Shown: positions 2,123 to 11,986 of the stretch, piece after piece
How the letters are laid out: each line of letters starts with the position of its first letter
Position numbering within the stretch: the first letter of the stretch is position 1
Origin: Sulfurimonadaceae bacterium
GTDB lineage: Bacteria; Campylobacterota; Campylobacteria; Campylobacterales; Sulfurimonadaceae
DNA: 12,468 bases
NCBI GenBank assembly: GCA_041548245.1
Contig: JBFESZ010000061.1
Location: 1-12,468, forward strand
Direction of reading: 5' to 3'
The notes under the pieces: generated by a model
Told to the model about the DNA's origin: nothing
Databases searched by the model: none
Seen by the model: only the letters and a program-made list of their open reading frames with translations
Program-made: the position numbers and the translations under genes

Positions 2123-3127
2123 CTAAAATAGACTTGGTTGACTCTTCTTGACATCAAAGACATCACTGTTGAGGATATCAGCACTTTGCTCTGCGATTAG
2201 CGCGAAGTGATAATACTCGCTTTTAAGCAGACGCATAATATCCCAAAGTGAATCGTAATGGAAGACGTTTCCATTCTCAAGCAGTGTATCTCGTTTTTCA
2301 GATGGGATTATATAGATAATCTTTGCCCAGTTTGCCTGCAGCTTTAAAAAACCTATCTGTTCTCTGATCAGATCGAAGTCAGGTTCAAATATCAGTACCT
2401 TATCACTCTTGCCAAACTCTTAGACTTGAAAGTTAATGTTGGTAAATACCGGTTTAAAATGTTCTATTGGATTAAAGTCTTTAAGTCTGTATTTTATGTC
2501 ATGTTGTTTAAGAAACTGCAGTATCATTTCCAGATAAGGCATAAAAAACGGGGAAAGCAGTTGTCTCTCATAATAGATATCATCATAAATAAAAGAGGTC
2601 TCAAAAAGCGTTTGTTCAACGATGTTGATCGATGAGTTCTGAATCTTCCCAATGGGCTTGTCATCGACAAACAAAGCGGGATCAATCAGCTTGGGAGAAT
2701 AGAGTATATATTGTTTCTCTTGTAGGCGCCAAAGCTCCTGGATGTGGTTTTGTATCGGTTTATCAAGGACAAGCAGTTCATTGGATGTCATGATCTGTGC
2801 TGCAAGTTTTAAAGCGATTTGATCACATGAGAATACCTGTGGGGATTTTTCCATAATATGAAAACGCAAGAGGCGAAGCAGGGCATTCTCTATAGATGCG
2901 ACTTTAATCCAGGCAATTTCCTGATCGGTTATCTGAGTCGGTTTTTCAAAGAGAATCCCATACGCGCCATTGATGACTGCCTGTTCGATATCATCATGTT
3001 TAAGGGCAACAAAAAGGTCTCCTCGTCTTACCTTTGATACCTCGAAACTGACATCCTCAAAAGCTGTGATACTAGGAGAATTGGTCAGTTTTCCTTCGAC
3101 CAAAGCGGTTAGGTTTTGAAGGTTCAT
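2123..3127 (-). pseudogene. Conserved Campylobacterota protein with Mur-ligase-like N-terminal domain, interrupted by one in-frame TAA (2420-2422); nonsense allele or sequencing error
   Basis: The track ORF stops after 235 aa at NFQV*, but the same frame stays open for 98 more codons (EFGKSDKVLIFEPDFDLIREQIGFLKLQANWAKIIYIIP...DVKKSQPSLF) to TAG at 2123-2125, 8 nt before the next start codon. The N-terminus (LTALVEGKL...VSKVRRGDLFVAL...AVINGAYGILFE) resembles the MurE/MurF N-domain. ATGA overlap with metG. Confidence 0.8.
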
Positions 3128-5064
3128 CCTACCGAGCTGCCAACTTTACGTTGACTTTCAGGACGCATAAGCGAGAGTCCCTCGTCGTCTTTTGCAGCCA
3201 ATAGCATACCCTCTGAAAGCATACCCATCAATTTTGCCGGTTTTAGATTTGCTACTACACACACCTGCGTATTGATCAATGATTCGGCTGAATAGAACTC
3301 TCTAATACCTGCAACGACTTGTCGAGGTTTTTCTTCACCGACATCAACTTGAAGTTTAAGAAGCTTTTTACTTTTTGGAACCTCTTCGGCTTCAACAACG
3401 GTTCCGATTTTCAGCGAAGTCTGGAAGAACTGATCAATTGTTATCAGGTTGTCTTCCTCTGTTTTTTCTACCTCTTTTTCCTGCTCGTGTAGCTTTGACT
3501 CTGGCTCTGAAGCTGGAGCCTGCTCCATCAGCGGTTCCTCAATTCTTGGGAAAAGCGGTGGTACTTTTTCTATGACGAATGGTTCAAGCAATTTTTTTCC
3601 AAGGATAAAATCATTATAACTTTGTGTATTGATCTCAAAACCAAGTGCACCAGAAATTGTATTGGTCGTATCTGGCATGACACAATTGAGCATGATTGAA
3701 GCCTTTGCCAAGATGTTTGCGACCAATGCAACAGTAGCAAGTGCCTCATCTTGCTTTCCATCTTTCATCTTAACCCACGGTGCATGCTCTTCTATAGCTT
3801 TATTACCGATTGCAAAAAGTTTCCACAACTCTTCTAGATAACGATGAGTTTGAAGTTCATCAAGAAACTTTTCCAGGTTGTCTAACACGACATTCATTTC
3901 AGAGAGCTCTTTCTCGTGAAACTTTTGTACATCTTGACTGTCAATATTGTAATCAGAGTATTTTCCGCTCATTCCAATGATACGGTTTAATAAGTTGCCT
4001 AAGTCATTACTTAGATCAGAATTGATTCTATCGATAAACGCACGCTGGGAAAAGTCACCGTCTTGACCAAAAGGAACCTCACGCAACATGAAGTAACGCA
4101 AGTTTTCTACTCCGTAAGCATCAGCAACTTCTTTCGGATGTACTACATTACCTTTTGATTTAGACATCTTCTCACCATCACGTGTCCACCAGCCATGCGC
4201 ACCGATGTGTTTAGGCAATGGAAGATCAAGGCTCATTAAAAATGCAGGCCAATAGATGGCATGGAAACGCAATATGTCTTTACCGACCATGTGGATGTCT
4301 GCCGGCCAAAAATCCATATTTTTTTCATCTTTACCGTAGCCAAGTGCTGTTACATAGTTAAGCAGGGCATCAAGCCAGACATACATGACATGCTTGTTAT
4401 CATTAAACTCTTCAGGGAGTTTAACACCCCAGTTGAATGTCGTACGCGTGATTGAAAGGTCGTTAAGGCCGCCTTTTACAAAGTTGATCACTTCATTTCT
4501 ACGTGATTTAGGCAAGATGAAATCAATATTATCATCATAATGTTTGAGCAGTTTGTCCTCATAGGCTGACAGCTTGAAAAAATAGCTCTCTTCTTTTACA
4601 ATGTTTGTCGGCTTGCCGCAGTCGGGACAGAACTCGCCATCAATCAGTTGTGTTTCAGGAAAAAAGGTCTCGCATGATATACAGTAATGACCTTCATAGT
4701 TTCCCTTGTAGATGTCGCCATTGTCATACATTTTCTTAAATGCTTGTTGTACACCTGCTTTGTGATCTTCATCTGTTGTTCTGATGAAATAGTCGTAAGA
4801 GATATTAAATTCGTCCCAGAGGTCTCTAAAGGTCTTGGAGATCTCATCAGCAAATACTTGGGTCGGCTTGTTGAACTTAAGTGCAGACTCCTCAATCTTC
4901 TGTCCATGCTCATCCGTACCTGTTAGAAAAAATGTCTTGATTCCTTTTAGTCTTGAATGACGTGCAACTGAATCAGCGATAAAGGTCGTATACGCATGGC
5001 CTATGTGCGCTTCGCCGTTAACATAATAGATAGGTGTTGTAATATAGTTTTTAGTTGTTGACAT
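3124..5064 (-). CDS. metG: Methionine--tRNA ligase with C-terminal tRNA-binding (Trbp111/EMAP-like) domain
   Basis: 646 aa. YITTPIYYVN, HIGH, TGTDEHGQKI, zinc knuckle CISC...CPDC, YVWLDAL, GKDILRFHAIYWP and KMSKS. C-terminal ANLKPAKLMGMLSEGMLL. Confidence 0.99.
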   Translation of the reverse strand: MSTTKNYITTPIYYVNGEAHIGHAYTTFIADSVARHSRLKGIKTFFLTGTDEHGQKIEESALKFNKPTQVFADEISKTFRDLWDEFNISYDYFIRTTDEDHKAGVQQAFKKMYDNGDIYKGNYEGHYCISCETFFPETQLIDGEFCPDCGKPTNIVKEESYFFKLSAYEDKLLKHYDDNIDFILPKSRRNEVINFVKGGLNDLSITRTTFNWGVKLPEEFNDNKHVMYVWLDALLNYVTALGYGKDEKNMDFWPADIHMVGKDILRFHAIYWPAFLMSLDLPLPKHIGAHGWWTRDGEKMSKSKGNVVHPKEVADAYGVENLRYFMLREVPFGQDGDFSQRAFIDRINSDLSNDLGNLLNRIIGMSGKYSDYNIDSQDVQKFHEKELSEMNVVLDNLEKFLDELQTHRYLEELWKLFAIGNKAIEEHAPWVKMKDGKQDEALATVALVANILAKASIMLNCVMPDTTNTISGALGFEINTQSYNDFILGKKLLEPFVIEKVPPLFPRIEEPLMEQAPASEPESKLHEQEKEVEKTEEDNLITIDQFFQTSLKIGTVVEAEEVPKSKKLLKLQVDVGEEKPRQVVAGIREFYSAESLINTQVCVVANLKPAKLMGMLSEGMLLAAKDDEGLSLMRPESQRKVGSSVG

Positions 5065-6718: not shown

Positions 6719-7321
6719 ATGAATAAACTTTTAGTTTTAGCCGCATTGGGTTCGTCTTTGATGCTTGGCGGATGTAGTAAAACAACGGCATTTGACTTCT
6801 TTTCGTCTGATACCTATTATGAAAAGGCCGTTTCCAACATGCAAAAAGTCTCTTTAATGAGAGATATGGAGACCAAGGCACTGTTGCATGCTGTTTATCT
6901 TAATAATGTCGATCCGCACATCTACTCAGGTGACGAGTATTTCTATGTTGCCATACACATCATCGAAGATGCCTATGATCCAAAAAGACATGGACTTAAA
7001 AACTTGGACTATCGTCTTAGAATGGTAAAAAAAGGTAAGACCCAAGAGGATCAGGATATTGTTAAAATGCCTGGTTACAACGGTGAAGCAAAAGACGAAG
7101 ATACTGTTAGTGCGAAAGATAACATTATGTACATGGACCCGATAGAGGCGACAGAACTTGATGAAGAGCATAAGCTTCGACGTACAATGCCCATAAGACA
7201 ACAGTGGAACCACTATTACATTGTCCGTTTTAATGAAGTCAACGCTTCCGAACTGACACTATCGTTTGAAAATGATCAGTACGGGAAGGTGCCCCTAAAA
7301 TTTCAGAAAGAGAAAAGATAG
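6719..7321 (+). CDS. Lipoprotein of unknown function
   Basis: 200 aa. Signal peptide with lipobox LGG-C19 and AGGA RBS. Same position (divergent from mobB) as the lipoprotein I recall in C. jejuni. Confidence 0.88.
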   Translation: MNKLLVLAALGSSLMLGGCSKTTAFDFFSSDTYYEKAVSNMQKVSLMRDMETKALLHAVYLNNVDPHIYSGDEYFYVAIHIIEDAYDPKRHGLKNLDYRLRMVKKGKTQEDQDIVKMPGYNGEAKDEDTVSAKDNIMYMDPIEATELDEEHKLRRTMPIRQQWNHYYIVRFNEVNASELTLSFENDQYGKVPLKFQKEKR

Positions 7322-7408: not shown

Positions 7409-7414
7409 TATAAT
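7409..7414 (+). promoter_or_regulatory. Candidate -10 box for the SBP/GGDEF-EAL pair
   Basis: TATAAT 40 nt before the ATG at 7455, preceded by T-tracts (7376-7396) typical of Campylobacterota promoters. Confidence 0.45.
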
Positions 7415-7454
7415 ATATGATAAAACCATATTACTGCAAACGAGGTTTACAAAA

Positions 7455-8339
7455 ATGTTAAGATCGTTTATTATTACGTTAACAGCCTTATTTTTTTTTA
7501 TTTCATGCAGTTCCAATCCACAGAGCAAACTCAAAATCTCGGCTACAACATGGATAGGGTATTCGCCGCTTTTTTATGCTAAAGAGAAGGGGTGGCTGGA
7601 ACCTTTGAATATAAAGCTTTTAAACGTGAGCTCTTTAAGTGAGAATATGTACCTGTATGAAGCAGGCAATGCAGACGCTTATGTCGGAACACAATATGAA
7701 TATGAGCTTATCGTAAAAAAAGATCCCTCTTTAATGCCTATTATGTTGTTTGATCGCTCGTTTGGCGGTGACATTATCATGAGCAATACAAATATTGATA
7801 CCTTAAAGAACAACTCAGGCCCTATCGATGCCTACTTGGAGCTTGATTCGATAAACTCGACCTTGCTCAAGGATTTTATCAAAAAACATGCATTGAACAA
7901 TAAAACAATCAAGCATATCAATATGGACCAGGCACAGATATCGACATTAAAGAAAAAAAATTTCAAAAAAGATGTCATTATTGTGACTTATATTCCTTAT
8001 GACAGCCATTTGAAAAAGAATGGATTTCAAGAGATAGCCTCTACAAAAGATGGCCTTGACCTCTTGGTGCTGGACGCTTTATTTACAACGGAGCAAACGT
8101 TTAATAAACATAGAGAGCAGTTTGTTGCACTTAAAGCATTGGTTGACAAGGCTATTTCCACTCTTCATAACGATCCAAAAGAGTTCTATGAGGTTGTGAA
8201 GCCCTATATGCTTGAAGTCAGTTACAAAGACTTTCATGATTCACTTAATGATATTGTCTGGATAAACAAAGAGATGACTTCTGATCTTGAAAAACGTATC
8301 CAAGAGTCAGATTTTCCTACTAGAAACCTTCTAAGATGA
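7455..8339 (+). CDS. Lipoprotein solute-binding protein, NMT1/THI5/SsuA (NitT/TauT-type ABC SBP)-like; orphan
   Basis: Start re-called from TTG 7404 to ATG 7455 because GAGG lies at 7442-7445 and this gives a clean signal peptide MLRSFIITLTALFFFIS-C18 (294 aa). Family-like motifs TTWIGYSPLFYAKEKGWL, DRSFGGDIIM and VTYIPY. Confidence 0.82.
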   Translation: MLRSFIITLTALFFFISCSSNPQSKLKISATTWIGYSPLFYAKEKGWLEPLNIKLLNVSSLSENMYLYEAGNADAYVGTQYEYELIVKKDPSLMPIMLFDRSFGGDIIMSNTNIDTLKNNSGPIDAYLELDSINSTLLKDFIKKHALNNKTIKHINMDQAQISTLKKKNFKKDVIIVTYIPYDSHLKKNGFQEIASTKDGLDLLVLDALFTTEQTFNKHREQFVALKALVDKAISTLHNDPKEFYEVVKPYMLEVSYKDFHDSLNDIVWINKEMTSDLEKRIQESDFPTRNLLR

Positions 8340-10327
8340 CATTGACGATCAAGAGCTTTTCATTTTTTCTCATTTTTCTTCTTTTTAGCGTTCTGTATGG
8401 AACTTTTGCAAAATATTTCTTCGATCAACGTGAAAATACGGCAGGTGTCATTTTAAAAAGTCTACAAAATGATATGTCCGAACTCAGCTATATCTTATCC
8501 AAAAATATCAAAAGTAAAGCATCGGTTAGTTCACATAGAGCTATATTGGAAAGAGCAGTTTCAAATAATGATTTCATCAAGGCAATCATTATCGCCGATG
8601 ACAGCAAAGTTTTACTGACAACTGATCGTAACTACAAGAGTATCCCATCCAAATATCTGCTTTCTAATGGCCTGGCTATAAACACCTATAAAAAACTATT
8701 GAACAAAAAAGGTATTGAGGGTGTTGTCAGGTTCTACGAGGGAGACACTCAGTATCAACTTAATCTTTTGTTTATGCTTGAACAGGACGAGATCATCACT
8801 TATTTTGAAAAAGACACATTGCGATTTTTCATCTTCTTTGGCCTGATCCCGATAATGGCACTTACTCTCTTATGGATCGCTTTTCACCACTACATATACA
8901 GACCTATGGAGCGTTTACGACAATATGCCTATTATCAAAGTAACATACCAAGCTCTTTCAGACTTCGTGAGCTCGAAGCTATTCGCTCATCCATGGTACA
9001 AACCTTTACACGGCTTGAGCAGGAACAAAAAGAGCTATATGATATCGCTCGAACCGATGAACTTAGCGGTCTTGCCAATCGCAATGCCTTACATGAGTAT
9101 CTCGATCGCCTCATTGCCGATTCAAGACGCTCAGACAAGGAGTTCGCTTTCCTCTTTCTTGATCTGGATCATTTTAAGGATGTGAATGATGCGCTTGGTC
9201 ATCAAGTGGGCGATGAACTCCTAAAGAATGTCGCTTCAGTAATTCAGCAGGTCTTGCGTTCGAACGACTTTGTCGCACGAGTCGGTGGAGATGAGTTTGT
9301 TATCGTCTTACATAATTATAAATCGCTTTTAGAGTTGATAAACGTCATTAAACGTATTCAAGACCGCTTAAGTCAGCCGTGGGTAATCCAGACGCATCCC
9401 GTTGATGTCAAAAGTAGTATAGGTGTTGCTTTTTTCCCTAAAGACGGAGAAGATATCGGTTCTTTAATGCAGCATGCCGATATAGCCATGTATGAGGCGA
9501 AGAATAAGGGACGTGCGCAATACCACTTTTTTACAGAAGAGCTAAATGCCAAAGTCCAAGAAAACATCGCGCTTGACAGATCCATGCGCGAAGCGTTCAA
9601 GCAGCACGAGTATGAGCTTTATTATCAGCCTAAGATTAACATGGATAATGGAAAAATTATTGGTGTCGAAGCCTTGATTCGATGGATCAGTCCAATGAAA
9701 GGCATTGTACCGCCAAGTGTATTTATCCCTCTTGCCGAAGAGAATGGTTTTATCGTTGAACTTGGATGTTGGATCCTAGATGAGGCCCTGAGACAGCAAG
9801 CGAAATGGAAAGAGCAGGGACTTGATATTGATGTATCGATCAATATTGCGACACAGCAGTTGGTGGATGACCTCTTCATCGAAAGGCTGAGTGATTTATT
9901 GAAAAAGCACGATACAGACCCATCCCGCGTTGATTTTGAGATTACGGAATACCTTTTCCTGGAAAATACTGAGAACAACGCAAGAATATTAGAAATGGTA
10001 CGAGATCAAGGTATTTCCATCTCGCTTGACGATTTTGGAACAGGCTACTCGTCGCTGTCATATCTGAAAGATTTCCCAATTGATTACCTAAAAATAGACA
10101 AGGCATTCGTAGATGATTTCAACACACCTCAAGGTGCAATATTCCTTGATACAATAGTCAAGATGGGCCAAACTCTTGGTATCAAGATCATAGCGGAGGG
10201 GGTTGAATCAAAAGATCAGATGCATTATCTTAAAAGCATTGGTTGCGACATCTATCAAGGATATCTTTGTTCAAAACCGCTTTCATCAAAAGAGTTTGAA
10301 GTCTTTTACGCTGCATATGCATCATGA
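8336..10327 (+). CDS. Membrane-bound diguanylate cyclase/phosphodiesterase (TM-periplasmic sensor-TM-HAMP-like-GGDEF-EAL)
   Basis: 663 aa. Hydrophobic segments at about aa 8-26 and 164-183. GGDEF domain: TDELSGLANR, DLDHFKDVNDALGH, I-site RSND, RVGGDEF. EAL domain: YYQPK, VEALIRW, EITE, DDFGTGYSS, KIDK, IAEGVE, QGY. ATGA overlap with the upstream SBP gene. Confidence 0.96.
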   Translation: MTLTIKSFSFFLIFLLFSVLYGTFAKYFFDQRENTAGVILKSLQNDMSELSYILSKNIKSKASVSSHRAILERAVSNNDFIKAIIIADDSKVLLTTDRNYKSIPSKYLLSNGLAINTYKKLLNKKGIEGVVRFYEGDTQYQLNLLFMLEQDEIITYFEKDTLRFFIFFGLIPIMALTLLWIAFHHYIYRPMERLRQYAYYQSNIPSSFRLRELEAIRSSMVQTFTRLEQEQKELYDIARTDELSGLANRNALHEYLDRLIADSRRSDKEFAFLFLDLDHFKDVNDALGHQVGDELLKNVASVIQQVLRSNDFVARVGGDEFVIVLHNYKSLLELINVIKRIQDRLSQPWVIQTHPVDVKSSIGVAFFPKDGEDIGSLMQHADIAMYEAKNKGRAQYHFFTEELNAKVQENIALDRSMREAFKQHEYELYYQPKINMDNGKIIGVEALIRWISPMKGIVPPSVFIPLAEENGFIVELGCWILDEALRQQAKWKEQGLDIDVSINIATQQLVDDLFIERLSDLLKKHDTDPSRVDFEITEYLFLENTENNARILEMVRDQGISISLDDFGTGYSSLSYLKDFPIDYLKIDKAFVDDFNTPQGAIFLDTIVKMGQTLGIKIIAEGVESKDQMHYLKSIGCDIYQGYLCSKPLSSKEFEVFYAAYAS

Positions 10328-11986
10328 ATCAGAAGTGTTGTCCTCTTTACCCTTTTTAGCCACTTTTTTTATCCTAAAATTATCAGTATAGATAGGGTCG
10401 CTCAGTGTTTGAAAAAGCGAGGTTATCTTTACCTCATCACCTAATATCTTTTTATAAATCACATAATTGGCAAGAACTTTTTTTGCGTACTCTCTGCTTT
10501 CACTATTTGCCATTAGTTCCATACTCAAAAACGGCTCGAAACTCCCTCGTGAAAACTTCCCTTTAAGTAGATACCTTTTTGTAAAGCCGATGCCGCCATT
10601 GTAGGCATAGGCAATAAAAAGCGGGTGATAAAGATACTTTTTAAGATATTTAAGATGTTCAATGGCGTATTGAATATTCTTATAGGGGTTAAACATCTCT
10701 TCAAGTTTGACACTCTCTTTCTTTTGCTTAGCCAGGCCTTTAATTAAAAAAGGCATCATCTGCATAACACCCAAAGCATAAGAACGTGAGATAGCTGAAG
10801 GGATGAAATGACTCTCCTGTCGGCCCAATGCATATAGCAGAGCTTTGTCTTCCTTGCTTAAAGAGCGTGTAGCCTCTTTATAGGGCATGATGTAGTTATG
10901 TACTTTATAATCAAGCAACTTCGAATAGATAAAAGCGTTGATTACCTCGTCGTCTGTATTGTTAAACGACTCCATCATTTTTTTAAGTGCCTCTTTTTTT
11001 GATGTTCTGATTTTATCCAGTAGATCTTCCCAGACATAAGGGTCACTAAGGTCATGAGAGGAAGGCTGATCATCAAGTTCAAGCTGTGAGAAATAATTGT
11101 TTGTCTCTATATTAAGTTGCTCTCTGGCATAAAGCGAATAAATATTGATATCACTACTTTGAGCCAACAATTGCAAATATCTGTTATTCTTGGATGATAA
11201 ATAGTGCCAAAAAAGCGCCTTGTCCTTATCCATCTGATAATAGGCTTTGTTGTAAGCAATCTCCAGATAGTACCCAGCTTTTTTCGTCGCTTTAAAGCGT
11301 ATTGCATTCAGAGCCAGAAAAAAATAGGACTGCGCACTAAACTCATGCGGATCAAGTTCAAGCAATGACTCTTGCATCTTATCCATTTCAGCGTCAGTAA
11401 CGATATACTTTATCGCTCTTTCAAACCTTTTATCTTTTGCAAGTTCATTGATATGATTTTTTGAGAGCTTTACATTGAAGTACTTTTGTCTGTTCGCCTG
11501 ACCGAGCTCATTGAAGAGTTTAAGATAATGATCACTGCCACTTGCTAATAGCGTACTGACAAAAGGAGTCTCGTTCATCAGTATTATACGTTCACTTTTT
11601 TTCGGATGCTCTTTTTTCAAAAGCTGTGCGAAATGGCTTCTTTGTTCATTGCTTAACTTCATTGCCTTTATATAGCTCAGCCCGCTGTTAATACAGTCTG
11701 CACTAGTCTCATTTAGTAAAAAACCGATATCTCCCTGCATGCATTGATATTGTTTTTTTATAGCAGCATTGTCTGTTTTGAGCGAATAAACCTTGAGTAT
11801 TTTCGGGTTTAGTTTGTTTTGAACCAGTTTGTAGGCTTTATCAGCTTCAGAGGCGTTGATATCGGTCTGAAAATATTGCCAAATTTGAAAATCTCTGACA
11901 TGACCTTGTGGGCTTTCTTTGAGTATTTTGAATGAAGAGCCTGCAGATAAAAGGGCAGGGATGAGAAGGAAAACGAGTCTTATCAT
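10322..11986 (-). CDS. slt: Soluble lytic murein transglycosylase (Slt-like)
   Basis: 554 aa. Signal peptide, helical N-region, and SLT motifs RQESHF (catalytic Glu), ALGVMQMMP, AYAYNGGIG and ESREYAKKV. Confidence 0.93.
   Translation of the reverse strand: MIRLVFLLIPALLSAGSSFKILKESPQGHVRDFQIWQYFQTDINASEADKAYKLVQNKLNPKILKVYSLKTDNAAIKKQYQCMQGDIGFLLNETSADCINSGLSYIKAMKLSNEQRSHFAQLLKKEHPKKSERIILMNETPFVSTLLASGSDHYLKLFNELGQANRQKYFNVKLSKNHINELAKDKRFERAIKYIVTDAEMDKMQESLLELDPHEFSAQSYFFLALNAIRFKATKKAGYYLEIAYNKAYYQMDKDKALFWHYLSSKNNRYLQLLAQSSDINIYSLYAREQLNIETNNYFSQLELDDQPSSHDLSDPYVWEDLLDKIRTSKKEALKKMMESFNNTDDEVINAFIYSKLLDYKVHNYIMPYKEATRSLSKEDKALLYALGRQESHFIPSAISRSYALGVMQMMPFLIKGLAKQKKESVKLEEMFNPYKNIQYAIEHLKYLKKYLYHPLFIAYAYNGGIGFTKRYLLKGKFSRGSFEPFLSMELMANSESREYAKKVLANYVIYKKILGDEVKITSLFQTLSDPIYTDNFRIKKVAKKGKEDNTSDS

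Follow-up and report, generated by a model that had tools for sequence, protein, structure and literature searches.

We found that two adjacent genes at positions 7455-10327 of a 12,468-nucleotide (nt) stretch of DNA from a Sulfurimonadaceae bacterium (contig JBFESZ010000061.1; we call the whole stretch the window) are a real, strongly conserved two-gene unit that probably serves signalling. The upstream gene encodes a lipoprotein of 294 amino acids (aa), P0001, a divergent periplasmic substrate-binding protein (SBP) of the NMT1/SsuA/TauA class. The downstream gene encodes P0002, a 663-aa membrane enzyme with a GGDEF and an EAL domain. The unit is most likely a sensor for an outside chemical. 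We propose, with a probability of about 0.6, that it is an SBP-dependent cyclic di-GMP (c-di-GMP) switch that works like NspS-MbaA of Vibrio cholerae, but with an SBP of another family and another docking domain. An earlier note, made from the DNA letters, had read the pair as an analogue of NspS-MbaA whose SBP comes from a different family. That reading is supported by the conserved adjacency of the two genes and by the profile match and fold of the SBP. The features of the unit, all on the + strand, are as follows.

7409..7414, +, TATAAT hexamer, a possible -10 box of the two-gene unit, read by eye and weak
7442..7445, +, GAGG ribosome-binding-like motif, 9 nt 5' of the ATG at 7455
7455..8339, +, SBP gene (P0001)
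7455..7508, +, signal peptide with lipobox F-I-S-C (Cys18 codon at 7506-7508)
8336..8339, +, ATGA overlap of the two genes
8336..10327, +, enzyme gene (P0002)
8354..8422, +, transmembrane segment 1 (aa 7-29), from hydropathy; a helix in the model
8423..8821, +, periplasmic domain (aa 30-162): long helix, second helix and four strands; PAS/PDC-like fold
8822..8890, +, transmembrane segment 2 (aa 163-185), from hydropathy and the model
8891..9049, +, helix-loop-helix linker (aa 186-238), HAMP-like by topology only
9050..9517, +, GGDEF domain (aa 239-394), Pfam 172 bits; RxxD site at 9257-9268, GGDEF motif at 9284-9298
9578..10279, +, EAL domain (aa 415-648), Pfam 238 bits; EAL motif at 9668-9676

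The pairing was surveyed across related loci with one genome per species (GTDB), using the peptide pattern W[IV]GYxPL[FYL]Y[AL] and a profile of 24 closer rows; the counts cover the best 80 of 138 relatives. Three of the 80 loci end inside the SBP gene, which leaves 77 that are informative. A homologue of P0002 (30-79% identity) lies directly downstream of the SBP gene, on the same strand, in 76 of these 77 loci, and because the matches start at query residue 1-31, the periplasmic part is included in these homologues. The two genes are also tightly spaced. In 74 of 75 measurable loci, the enzyme start falls -11 to +3 nt from the SBP stop (enzyme starts were picked by nearness to the alignment, and single gap values are approximate). 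The 4-nt overlap of the window recurs in 22 of the 75; in the window it can be read directly, with the ATG of the enzyme inside the TGA stop of the SBP gene, just as the earlier note had described it. Across two phyla, the two genes are thus almost always adjacent and tightly coupled. The earlier note had considered that homologues of the SBP might sit more often with permeases than with the enzyme, which would speak against a receptor pair; the survey gave the opposite outcome.

The pair also moves as a unit. A tree of the SBPs (FastTree, midpoint root) interleaves Campylobacterota (Sulfurimonas, Sulfuricurvum, Arcobacteraceae, Nautiliaceae) with Gammaproteobacteria (Thiomicrorhabdus, Hydrogenovibrio, Colwellia, Glaciecola), and well-supported branches force at least three changes of label. 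Additionally, three Thiomicrorhabdus genomes carry two pairs each (L013/L052, L027/L062 and L010/L057). These pairs fall into two separate clades of the SBP tree, and the identities of their SBPs and enzymes to those of the window fall into the same two classes. Because the SBP tree is interleaved and the identity classes are matched, we conclude from the sequences that the pair is inherited, transferred and duplicated as a unit. Pairwise distances between SBPs correlate with those between periplasmic domains of the enzymes (r 0.885; partial r given the cytoplasmic part 0.60), which would fit co-adaptation of the two. As the sequence pairs have common ancestors and are not independent, this correlation is no more than suggestive.

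Some loci carry an incomplete gene. The enzyme gene is interrupted in three loci from metagenome-assembled genomes: at L006:6885-8829 (572 aa plus a 93-aa EAL piece), at L041:6837-8856 (386 aa plus a 294-aa EAL open reading frame (ORF)) and at L068:6877-8835, where it lacks a single ORF. The SBP ORF at L061:6001-6678 is only 225 aa long. These broken enzymes and the short SBP represent either decay or assembly errors.

The earlier note had found no ATP-binding cassette (ABC) permease or ATPase on either side of the pair, and this held both in the window and at related loci. In the window, neither was present among the ORFs scanned; a 646-aa ORF at 3124-5064, which lay outside the Pfam scan, by eye resembles methionyl-tRNA synthetase. 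At the related loci, the scan took the nearest ORF of at least 90 aa on each side (76 upstream, 66 downstream), and no NitT/TauT-type permease or ATPase was among them. ABC parts of any kind were found in 0 of the 66 downstream and 2 of the 76 upstream ORFs; both are PstB (L036 and L045), 374 bits above cut-off. The flanking ORFs belong to dozens of families that are unrelated from lineage to lineage.

P0001 was examined by profile, by fold and by alignment of its family. Its Pfam match to NMT1 (PF09084) is marginal but valid (28.7 bits against a cut-off of 20.5, E 1.5e-6), and such matches are marginal family-wide: at E <= 0.1, NMT1 was found in 36 and NMT1_2 in 20 of 68 SBP family members. 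The only other Pfam match of P0001 at E <= 0.1 was DUF7203, which is sub-threshold (15.5 bits against a cut-off of 27), and no NCBIfam model matched it. An AlphaFold2 model built with 68 sequences (predicted local distance difference test score (pLDDT) 95, predicted template-modelling score (pTM) 0.87) has the two-lobed type II binding-protein fold. Foldseek placed this model, among Protein Data Bank (PDB) entries, with 3un6, TauA (6ssy), SsuA (2x26), ThiY (3ix1), THI5, PqqT and MqnD-like proteins (E 4e-12 to 1e-9, TM 0.5-0.6, identity 10-16%). A PDB sequence search with P0001 alone, or with the profile of its subfamily, returned chance matches only (S100, DARPins), whereas a bridging profile that includes distant relatives reached TauA (E 6e-11), SsuA (E 1e-10), 3qsl and THI5. 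The Pfam profile, the fold matches and the bridging-profile homology thus all support the NMT1/SsuA-like class to which the SBP had been assigned.

The description of P0001 as a lipoprotein was also borne out. Its hydrophobic signal peptide ends in F-I-S-C18. All 68 aligned family members keep the lipobox Cys; position -3 is L/F/M/I/V/S and position -1 is G/A/S. Across the 68 loci, 25 of the 294 columns are invariant and 35 are nearly invariant. The conserved columns include W33, G35, Y36, P38, Y41, S60, L61, T79, E82, S102, G104, G105, D106, E129, S132, Y179, P181 and D207. Binding proteins of the type II fold form their cleft at the C-terminal ends of strands, and the conserved residues of the SBP lie at the C-terminal ends of predicted strands in the model; cleft positions were judged from the secondary structure of that model.

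Two of the conserved residues offer a clue to the ligand. In TauA, the ligand contacts are Gln30, Gly61, Gly79, Thr132, Glu106 and Asp205, and the side chains of Glu106 and Asp205 hold the amine of taurine, according to the part of the structural report used here (PMC6906117). When P0001 was mapped onto TauA by hand, from the printed alignment of the remote bridging profile, D106 aligned with Glu106 and D207 with Asp205; both are conserved. In the same remote alignment, TauA Gly79 falls on T79, Gly61 on L61 and Thr132 on I133, and Gln30 lies beyond the aligned stretch. Conservation in the SBP family extends to three further acidic residues, E82, D100 and E129. As D106 and D207 fall on the two residues that hold the amine in TauA, the ligand of the SBP may carry a positively charged amine group. 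This is a weak indication because the alignment is remote. A thiamine or c-di-GMP riboswitch was considered as another clue to the ligand and was rejected, since an Rfam scan of the whole window found no riboswitch or leader, and its two matches, both inside the enzyme gene, were at chance level.

The SBP has more distant relatives. An exhaustive HMMER search of 1.84 billion representative proteins found 1208 relatives of P0001 at E <= 0.001, 204 at E <= 1e-10 and 88 at E <= 1e-30. A sharp subfamily stands out: a top group of about 290 aa has 26-51% identity to P0001, and below it stand proteins of 310-345 aa with about 25% identity. Distant relatives sampled for comparison (33 lipoproteins among P0223-P0271, 309-345 aa, 20-25% identity) carry a common signature. 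The residues W33, G35, Y36, T79, E82, D100, S102, G104, D106, E129, P181 and D207 occur in all, or almost all, of the 33; W33, G35, Y36, T79, E82, S102, G104, D106, P181 and D207 are each kept in 30-33 of the 33. Because the signature is also present in these distant lipoproteins, it hints that a much larger family of NMT1-class lipoproteins could be receptors, not transport proteins.

The catalytic half of P0002 is complete. The GGDEF motif occupies aa 317-321, with the RxxD site (R308-S-N-D311) five residues upstream, and the EAL motif occupies aa 445-447. The further EAL residues that we take to be catalytic, as metal- or substrate-binding residues, are all present (Q431, N503, E535/E538, D565/D566, K586, E621/E624 and Q641). 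Among 69 full-length family members, GGDEF is found in 69, and so are E445, L447, Q431, N503, E535, E538, D565, D566, K586, E621, E624 and Q641. The inhibitory site is less constant (R308 in 57 of 69, D311 in 65 of 69). The complete GGDEF motif with its RxxD site and the complete EAL motifs that had been noted in the window protein are thus intact here and, with that difference in constancy, throughout the family. Because the motif residues of both domains are intact in all 69 members, both cyclase and phosphodiesterase activities are probably kept. NCBIfam gave only generic matches, all to the cytoplasmic half. A YfiN-type enzyme was rejected as an identity for P0002, as the DgcN/YfiN model covers only the GGDEF part (aa 220-389).

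The N-terminal half is less easily classified. The earlier note had placed a periplasmic domain of about 130 aa between two transmembrane segments; hydropathy gives about 133 aa, and an AlphaFold2 model of the N-terminal 240 aa (pLDDT 89) agrees. In this model, a long helix (aa 5-57) runs out of transmembrane segment 1 and is followed by a second helix (aa 61-76) and four strands (aa 81-88, 91-95, 126-135 and 138-148). Another long helix then passes through transmembrane segment 2 to aa 200 and leads through a loop (201-210) into the last helix (aa 211-239). Foldseek matched the periplasmic domain weakly to the extracellular parts of WalK, KinD, DctB, Mlp24, DcuS and the LapD orthologue CdgS9; only one match had E <= 0.001, and TM normalised to the query was 0.3-0.57. 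No Pfam family was found at E <= 10 with either the N-terminal 240 aa or aa 27-163, and among 68 enzyme homologues Pfam gave only scattered sub-threshold matches (sCache_4 in 3, HK-GC-Chemotax_sensor in 5, ArlS_N in 2). A word-index search with aa 1-235 returned 67 proteins, all of them generically named GGDEF-EAL enzymes of 617-675 aa. No region of the enzyme is less conserved than the periplasmic part: its mean top-residue frequency across 69 members is 0.45, compared with 0.66-0.68 in the cytoplasmic domains, and only 2 of its 133 positions, Y52 and T96, are conserved at 90% or more.

The linker that follows had been called HAMP-like. Its helix-loop-helix topology agrees with this, and P190 and E212 are invariant in 68 sequences; the likeness does not extend to the Pfam profile, as HAMP did not match the window enzyme at E <= 10 and was not among the 25 most frequent of the 85 Pfam families matched by the 68 enzyme homologues.

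Based on these observations, we propose a model in which the lipoprotein would be exported and lipid-anchored, with an interlobe cleft that would bind a small molecule. Whether it docks on the PAS/PDC-like periplasmic domain of the enzyme may then depend on whether ligand is bound. The signal would pass through transmembrane segment 2 and the helix-loop-helix linker, and the output would be a shift in the balance between synthesis of c-di-GMP by the GGDEF domain and its breakdown by the EAL domain. The contact between SBP and enzyme, the role of the SBP and not the enzyme domain as ligand reader, and the cyclase/phosphodiesterase switch as output are the parts of the model that we infer. We believe that the SBP could be the ligand reader, and the PAS/PDC-like domain a docking and transmission module, because the cleft of the SBP is conserved and the periplasmic domain is variable. 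That docking may shift the enzyme between cyclase and phosphodiesterase modes is suggested by analogy with NspS-MbaA and PruR-DcpA.

Several observations weigh against this proposal. The survey covers the best 80 of the 138 relatives, down to about 40% identity, and within it L044 has an SBP without the enzyme in 860 nt of downstream sequence. No fusion of SBP and enzyme was found among longer proteins, although this search is weak as evidence. In addition, the PAS/PDC-like domain belongs to a kind that binds ligands itself in other sensors, and it might be the real sensor. On that account, the enzyme would bind the signal through its own domain and the lipoprotein would be an accessory, such as a scaffold, a stabiliser or a ligand-independent brake, a role that accessory proteins play for other membrane sensors. 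The nearest folds listed above are indeed all sensor domains, several of the entries are ligand complexes, and the top match is WalK modelled together with its accessory protein YycH. We nevertheless consider this account unlikely, because these matches are weak and because a domain with two well-conserved positions does not look like a conserved ligand pocket; the 60 invariant or nearly invariant columns are in the lipoprotein, where they are concentrated at cleft-forming loop positions. A little less likely again is an ordinary transport role, in which the lipoprotein would serve an unlinked ABC importer, possibly with a dual role, so that its adjacency to the enzyme would reflect co-regulation or a second role. 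Its relatives are named 'NitT/TauT family transport system substrate-binding protein' or 'ABC transporter substrate-binding protein' in source records, it resembles TauA and SsuA in fold and by remote homology, and an SBP acting on a chemoreceptor usually serves a transporter too, as stated in the part of a review drawn on here (PMC8050422). Against this stand the near-constant presence of the enzyme, the lack of a matching permease or ATPase among the nearest flanking ORFs scanned, and the movement and duplication of the pair as a unit.

The anchor of the lipoprotein raises a further difficulty for our model. Asp at +2 after the lipobox Cys is found in 0 of 68 lipoproteins and Ser at +2 in 45 of 68, and the tether from the lipidated Cys to W33 is very short and near-constant in length (13-15 residues in the 68 lipoproteins). 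Under the sorting rule of Escherichia coli, lipoproteins without Asp at +2 go to the outer membrane. By this rule, which may not apply to these bacteria, the +2 residues and the short tether would mean an outer-membrane SBP, and therefore one out of reach of an inner-membrane partner. It could then be that the lipoprotein, anchored in the outer membrane, reports the state of the envelope (lipoprotein traffic, surface contact or periplasmic width) and not a soluble chemical. NlpE, RcsF and YfiB are outer-membrane lipoproteins that signal to inner-membrane sensors. We regard this as very improbable, because lipoprotein sorting rules differ outside enterobacteria and because the conserved cleft residues, including the acidic ones that align with the taurine-amine ligands of TauA, fit the binding of a small molecule.

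Our preferred reading of an SBP-dependent switch can be extended, with the odds against the extension as a whole. Tentatively, the pair might found a third class of SBP-dependent c-di-GMP switch, unrelated to the others: a horizontally spreading two-gene cassette that senses an amine-bearing compound. Its receptor would be a lipid-anchored protein of the NMT1 class with the signature W33-x-G-Y, T79-x-x-E82, D100-x-S-x-G-G-D106, E129 and D207, and its docking part would be a previously unclassified PAS/PDC-like domain. Sulfur-oxidising chemolithoautotrophs and marine heterotrophs would be the carriers, and candidate ligands would include aminoalkyl-sulfonates, aminoalkyl-phosphonates and polyamine-like molecules. 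If so, this cue would determine whether the cells live attached or free at redox interfaces.

The immediate surroundings of the unit in the window were also searched for control elements. The earlier note had given the two genes a shared candidate promoter. This proved weaker than proposed, as a promoter/terminator consensus scan found 10 promoter-like sites against 9.7 expected in shuffled sequences, no excess over chance, and the TATAAT hexamer at 7409-7414 is the only element that can be named. At its 3' end, the enzyme gene overlaps a convergent SLT transglycosylase gene (10322-11986, - strand) by 6 nt (10322-10327); the terminator scan found no terminator-like site between these two genes. 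A megablast of the region against plasmids gave no match.

On the low side of the unit, the scanned ORFs of the window are a 200-aa lipoprotein, MobB, fructose-1,6-bisphosphatase, an ORF without a Pfam match, a DctP-type SBP and a soluble GGDEF protein; on the high side are the convergent SLT transglycosylase and YggT. The 200-aa lipoprotein (6719-7321, + strand; lipobox L-G-G-C; no Pfam or NCBIfam match) lies just upstream of the SBP gene. A 200-aa ORF without a Pfam match occupies the same place only in the two closest loci (L001:5194-5796 and L054:5191-5793), which also share the SLT neighbour of the window. The upstream lipoprotein reflects local synteny and lies outside the conserved pair. 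The window contains a second transporter-less SBP beside a cyclase: a DctP-type SBP of the tripartite ATP-independent periplasmic (TRAP) class (981-2114, - strand), with a twin-arginine-like leader and a VAGC lipobox, is followed after 113 nt by a 264-aa GGDEF protein (73-867, - strand) that has an AGDEF motif and, by eye, no hydrophobic segment. No DctQ or DctM genes were found in the window.

Single related loci have neighbours of their own. In two Sulfurimonadaceae metagenome-assembled genomes (MAGs), the pair follows phoB-phoR-pstC-pstA-pstB with no pstS between (L036:1202-5914 and L045:3368-5871), and at L006:4897-5889 a PstS-like PBP_like_2 gene is just upstream of the pair. A phosphate-linked role was considered and set aside, because 3 of 76 loci (L036, L045 and L006) are too few to build on. 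At L025:5481-5921, in a Sulfurimonas MAG, a PgaD-like gene (Pfam PgaD, E 3e-29) directly precedes the pair. The Pga synthase responds to c-di-GMP, which makes poly-N-acetylglucosamine synthesis a conceivable local output at L025.

Few ligands are known for the many bacterial GGDEF/EAL enzymes, and this pair is a compact, conserved two-gene system in which both catalytic domains are intact. Among its carriers are bacteria that dominate sulfidic-oxic interfaces (Sulfurimonas, Sulfuricurvum, Thiomicrorhabdus, Hydrogenovibrio and Nautiliaceae), as well as some marine heterotrophs (Colwellia, Glaciecola and Arcobacteraceae). Identifying the ligand would reveal an environmental cue by which c-di-GMP is set in these bacteria, and would demonstrate that dedicated receptors exist among NMT1-class 'transport' proteins, with consequences for the annotation of thousands of such genes.

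The earlier note knew of no characterised example of such a pair in Campylobacterota, and our full-text literature search agrees: among the matches listed, with supplementary tables outside the search, no description of such an SBP/GGDEF-EAL pair was found. The part of a paper on Sulfurimonas and c-di-GMP available to the search (PMC9239204) is silent on it. Of the known proteins, TauA and SsuA (SBPs of ABC importers for alkanesulfonates), ThiY and THI5 share the fold class of the SBP (Foldseek E about 1e-11, TM 0.55-0.60). Unlike TauA and SsuA, to which its identity is 10-16%, the SBP has a lipid anchor and no tauBC/ssuBC-type genes in its nearest flanking ORFs, and its signature residues T79, E82, D100, S102, G104 and E129 differ from those of TauA and SsuA in the printed profile alignment.

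Three systems are closer in logic, and the statements on each are limited to the parts of the cited papers used here. Like our unit, PruR-DcpA of Agrobacterium tumefaciens is bicistronic, with a periplasmic binding protein upstream of a GGDEF-EAL enzyme that has a periplasmic domain between two transmembrane segments, and it is conserved as a pair across Proteobacteria (PMC11194511). PruR has a SUOX-like fold and binds pterins, whereas the SBP here has the type II binding-protein fold; the periplasmic domain of DcpA is a predicted four-helix bundle with a WX7E motif (PMC11194511), whereas that of P0002 is alpha/beta, with four strands and flanking helices. In ScrB-ScrC of Vibrio parahaemolyticus, an SBP acts on a membrane GGDEF-EAL enzyme, as we propose here; ScrC/ScrB and MbaA/NspS are the only SBP-dependent GGDEF-EAL receptors listed in Table 1 of PMC8050422. 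ScrB belongs to SBP_bac_3 (PF00497), and no SBP_bac_3 match was found for the SBP here. The Scr system also has ScrA, which makes the signal, whereas the nearest flanking ORFs of our unit hold no conserved third gene.

The closest parallel is NspS-MbaA, in which the SBP gene also lies immediately upstream of a GGDEF-EAL gene with a periplasmic domain between two transmembrane segments, the arrangement seen here in 76 of the 77 loci. MbaA is bifunctional, and NspS sets its balance between cyclase and phosphodiesterase (PMC8079147; PMC8050422, Table 1). The components differ, as judged by the published description of MbaA and not by its sequence. NspS is a soluble protein of the SBP_bac_8 family (PF13416), whereas the SBP here is an NMT1-class lipoprotein, and SBP_bac_8 is not among the 25 most frequent of the 40 Pfam families matched by its 68 family members. 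MbaA has SGDEF and EVL motifs, whereas P0002 has canonical GGDEF and EAL motifs with an RxxD site. The sensor domain of MbaA is described as 'dCache-like' (PMC8050422), whereas that of P0002 is a single small PAS/PDC-like module in the model. In sum, the unit probably works like NspS-MbaA but falls outside the NspS-MbaA family.

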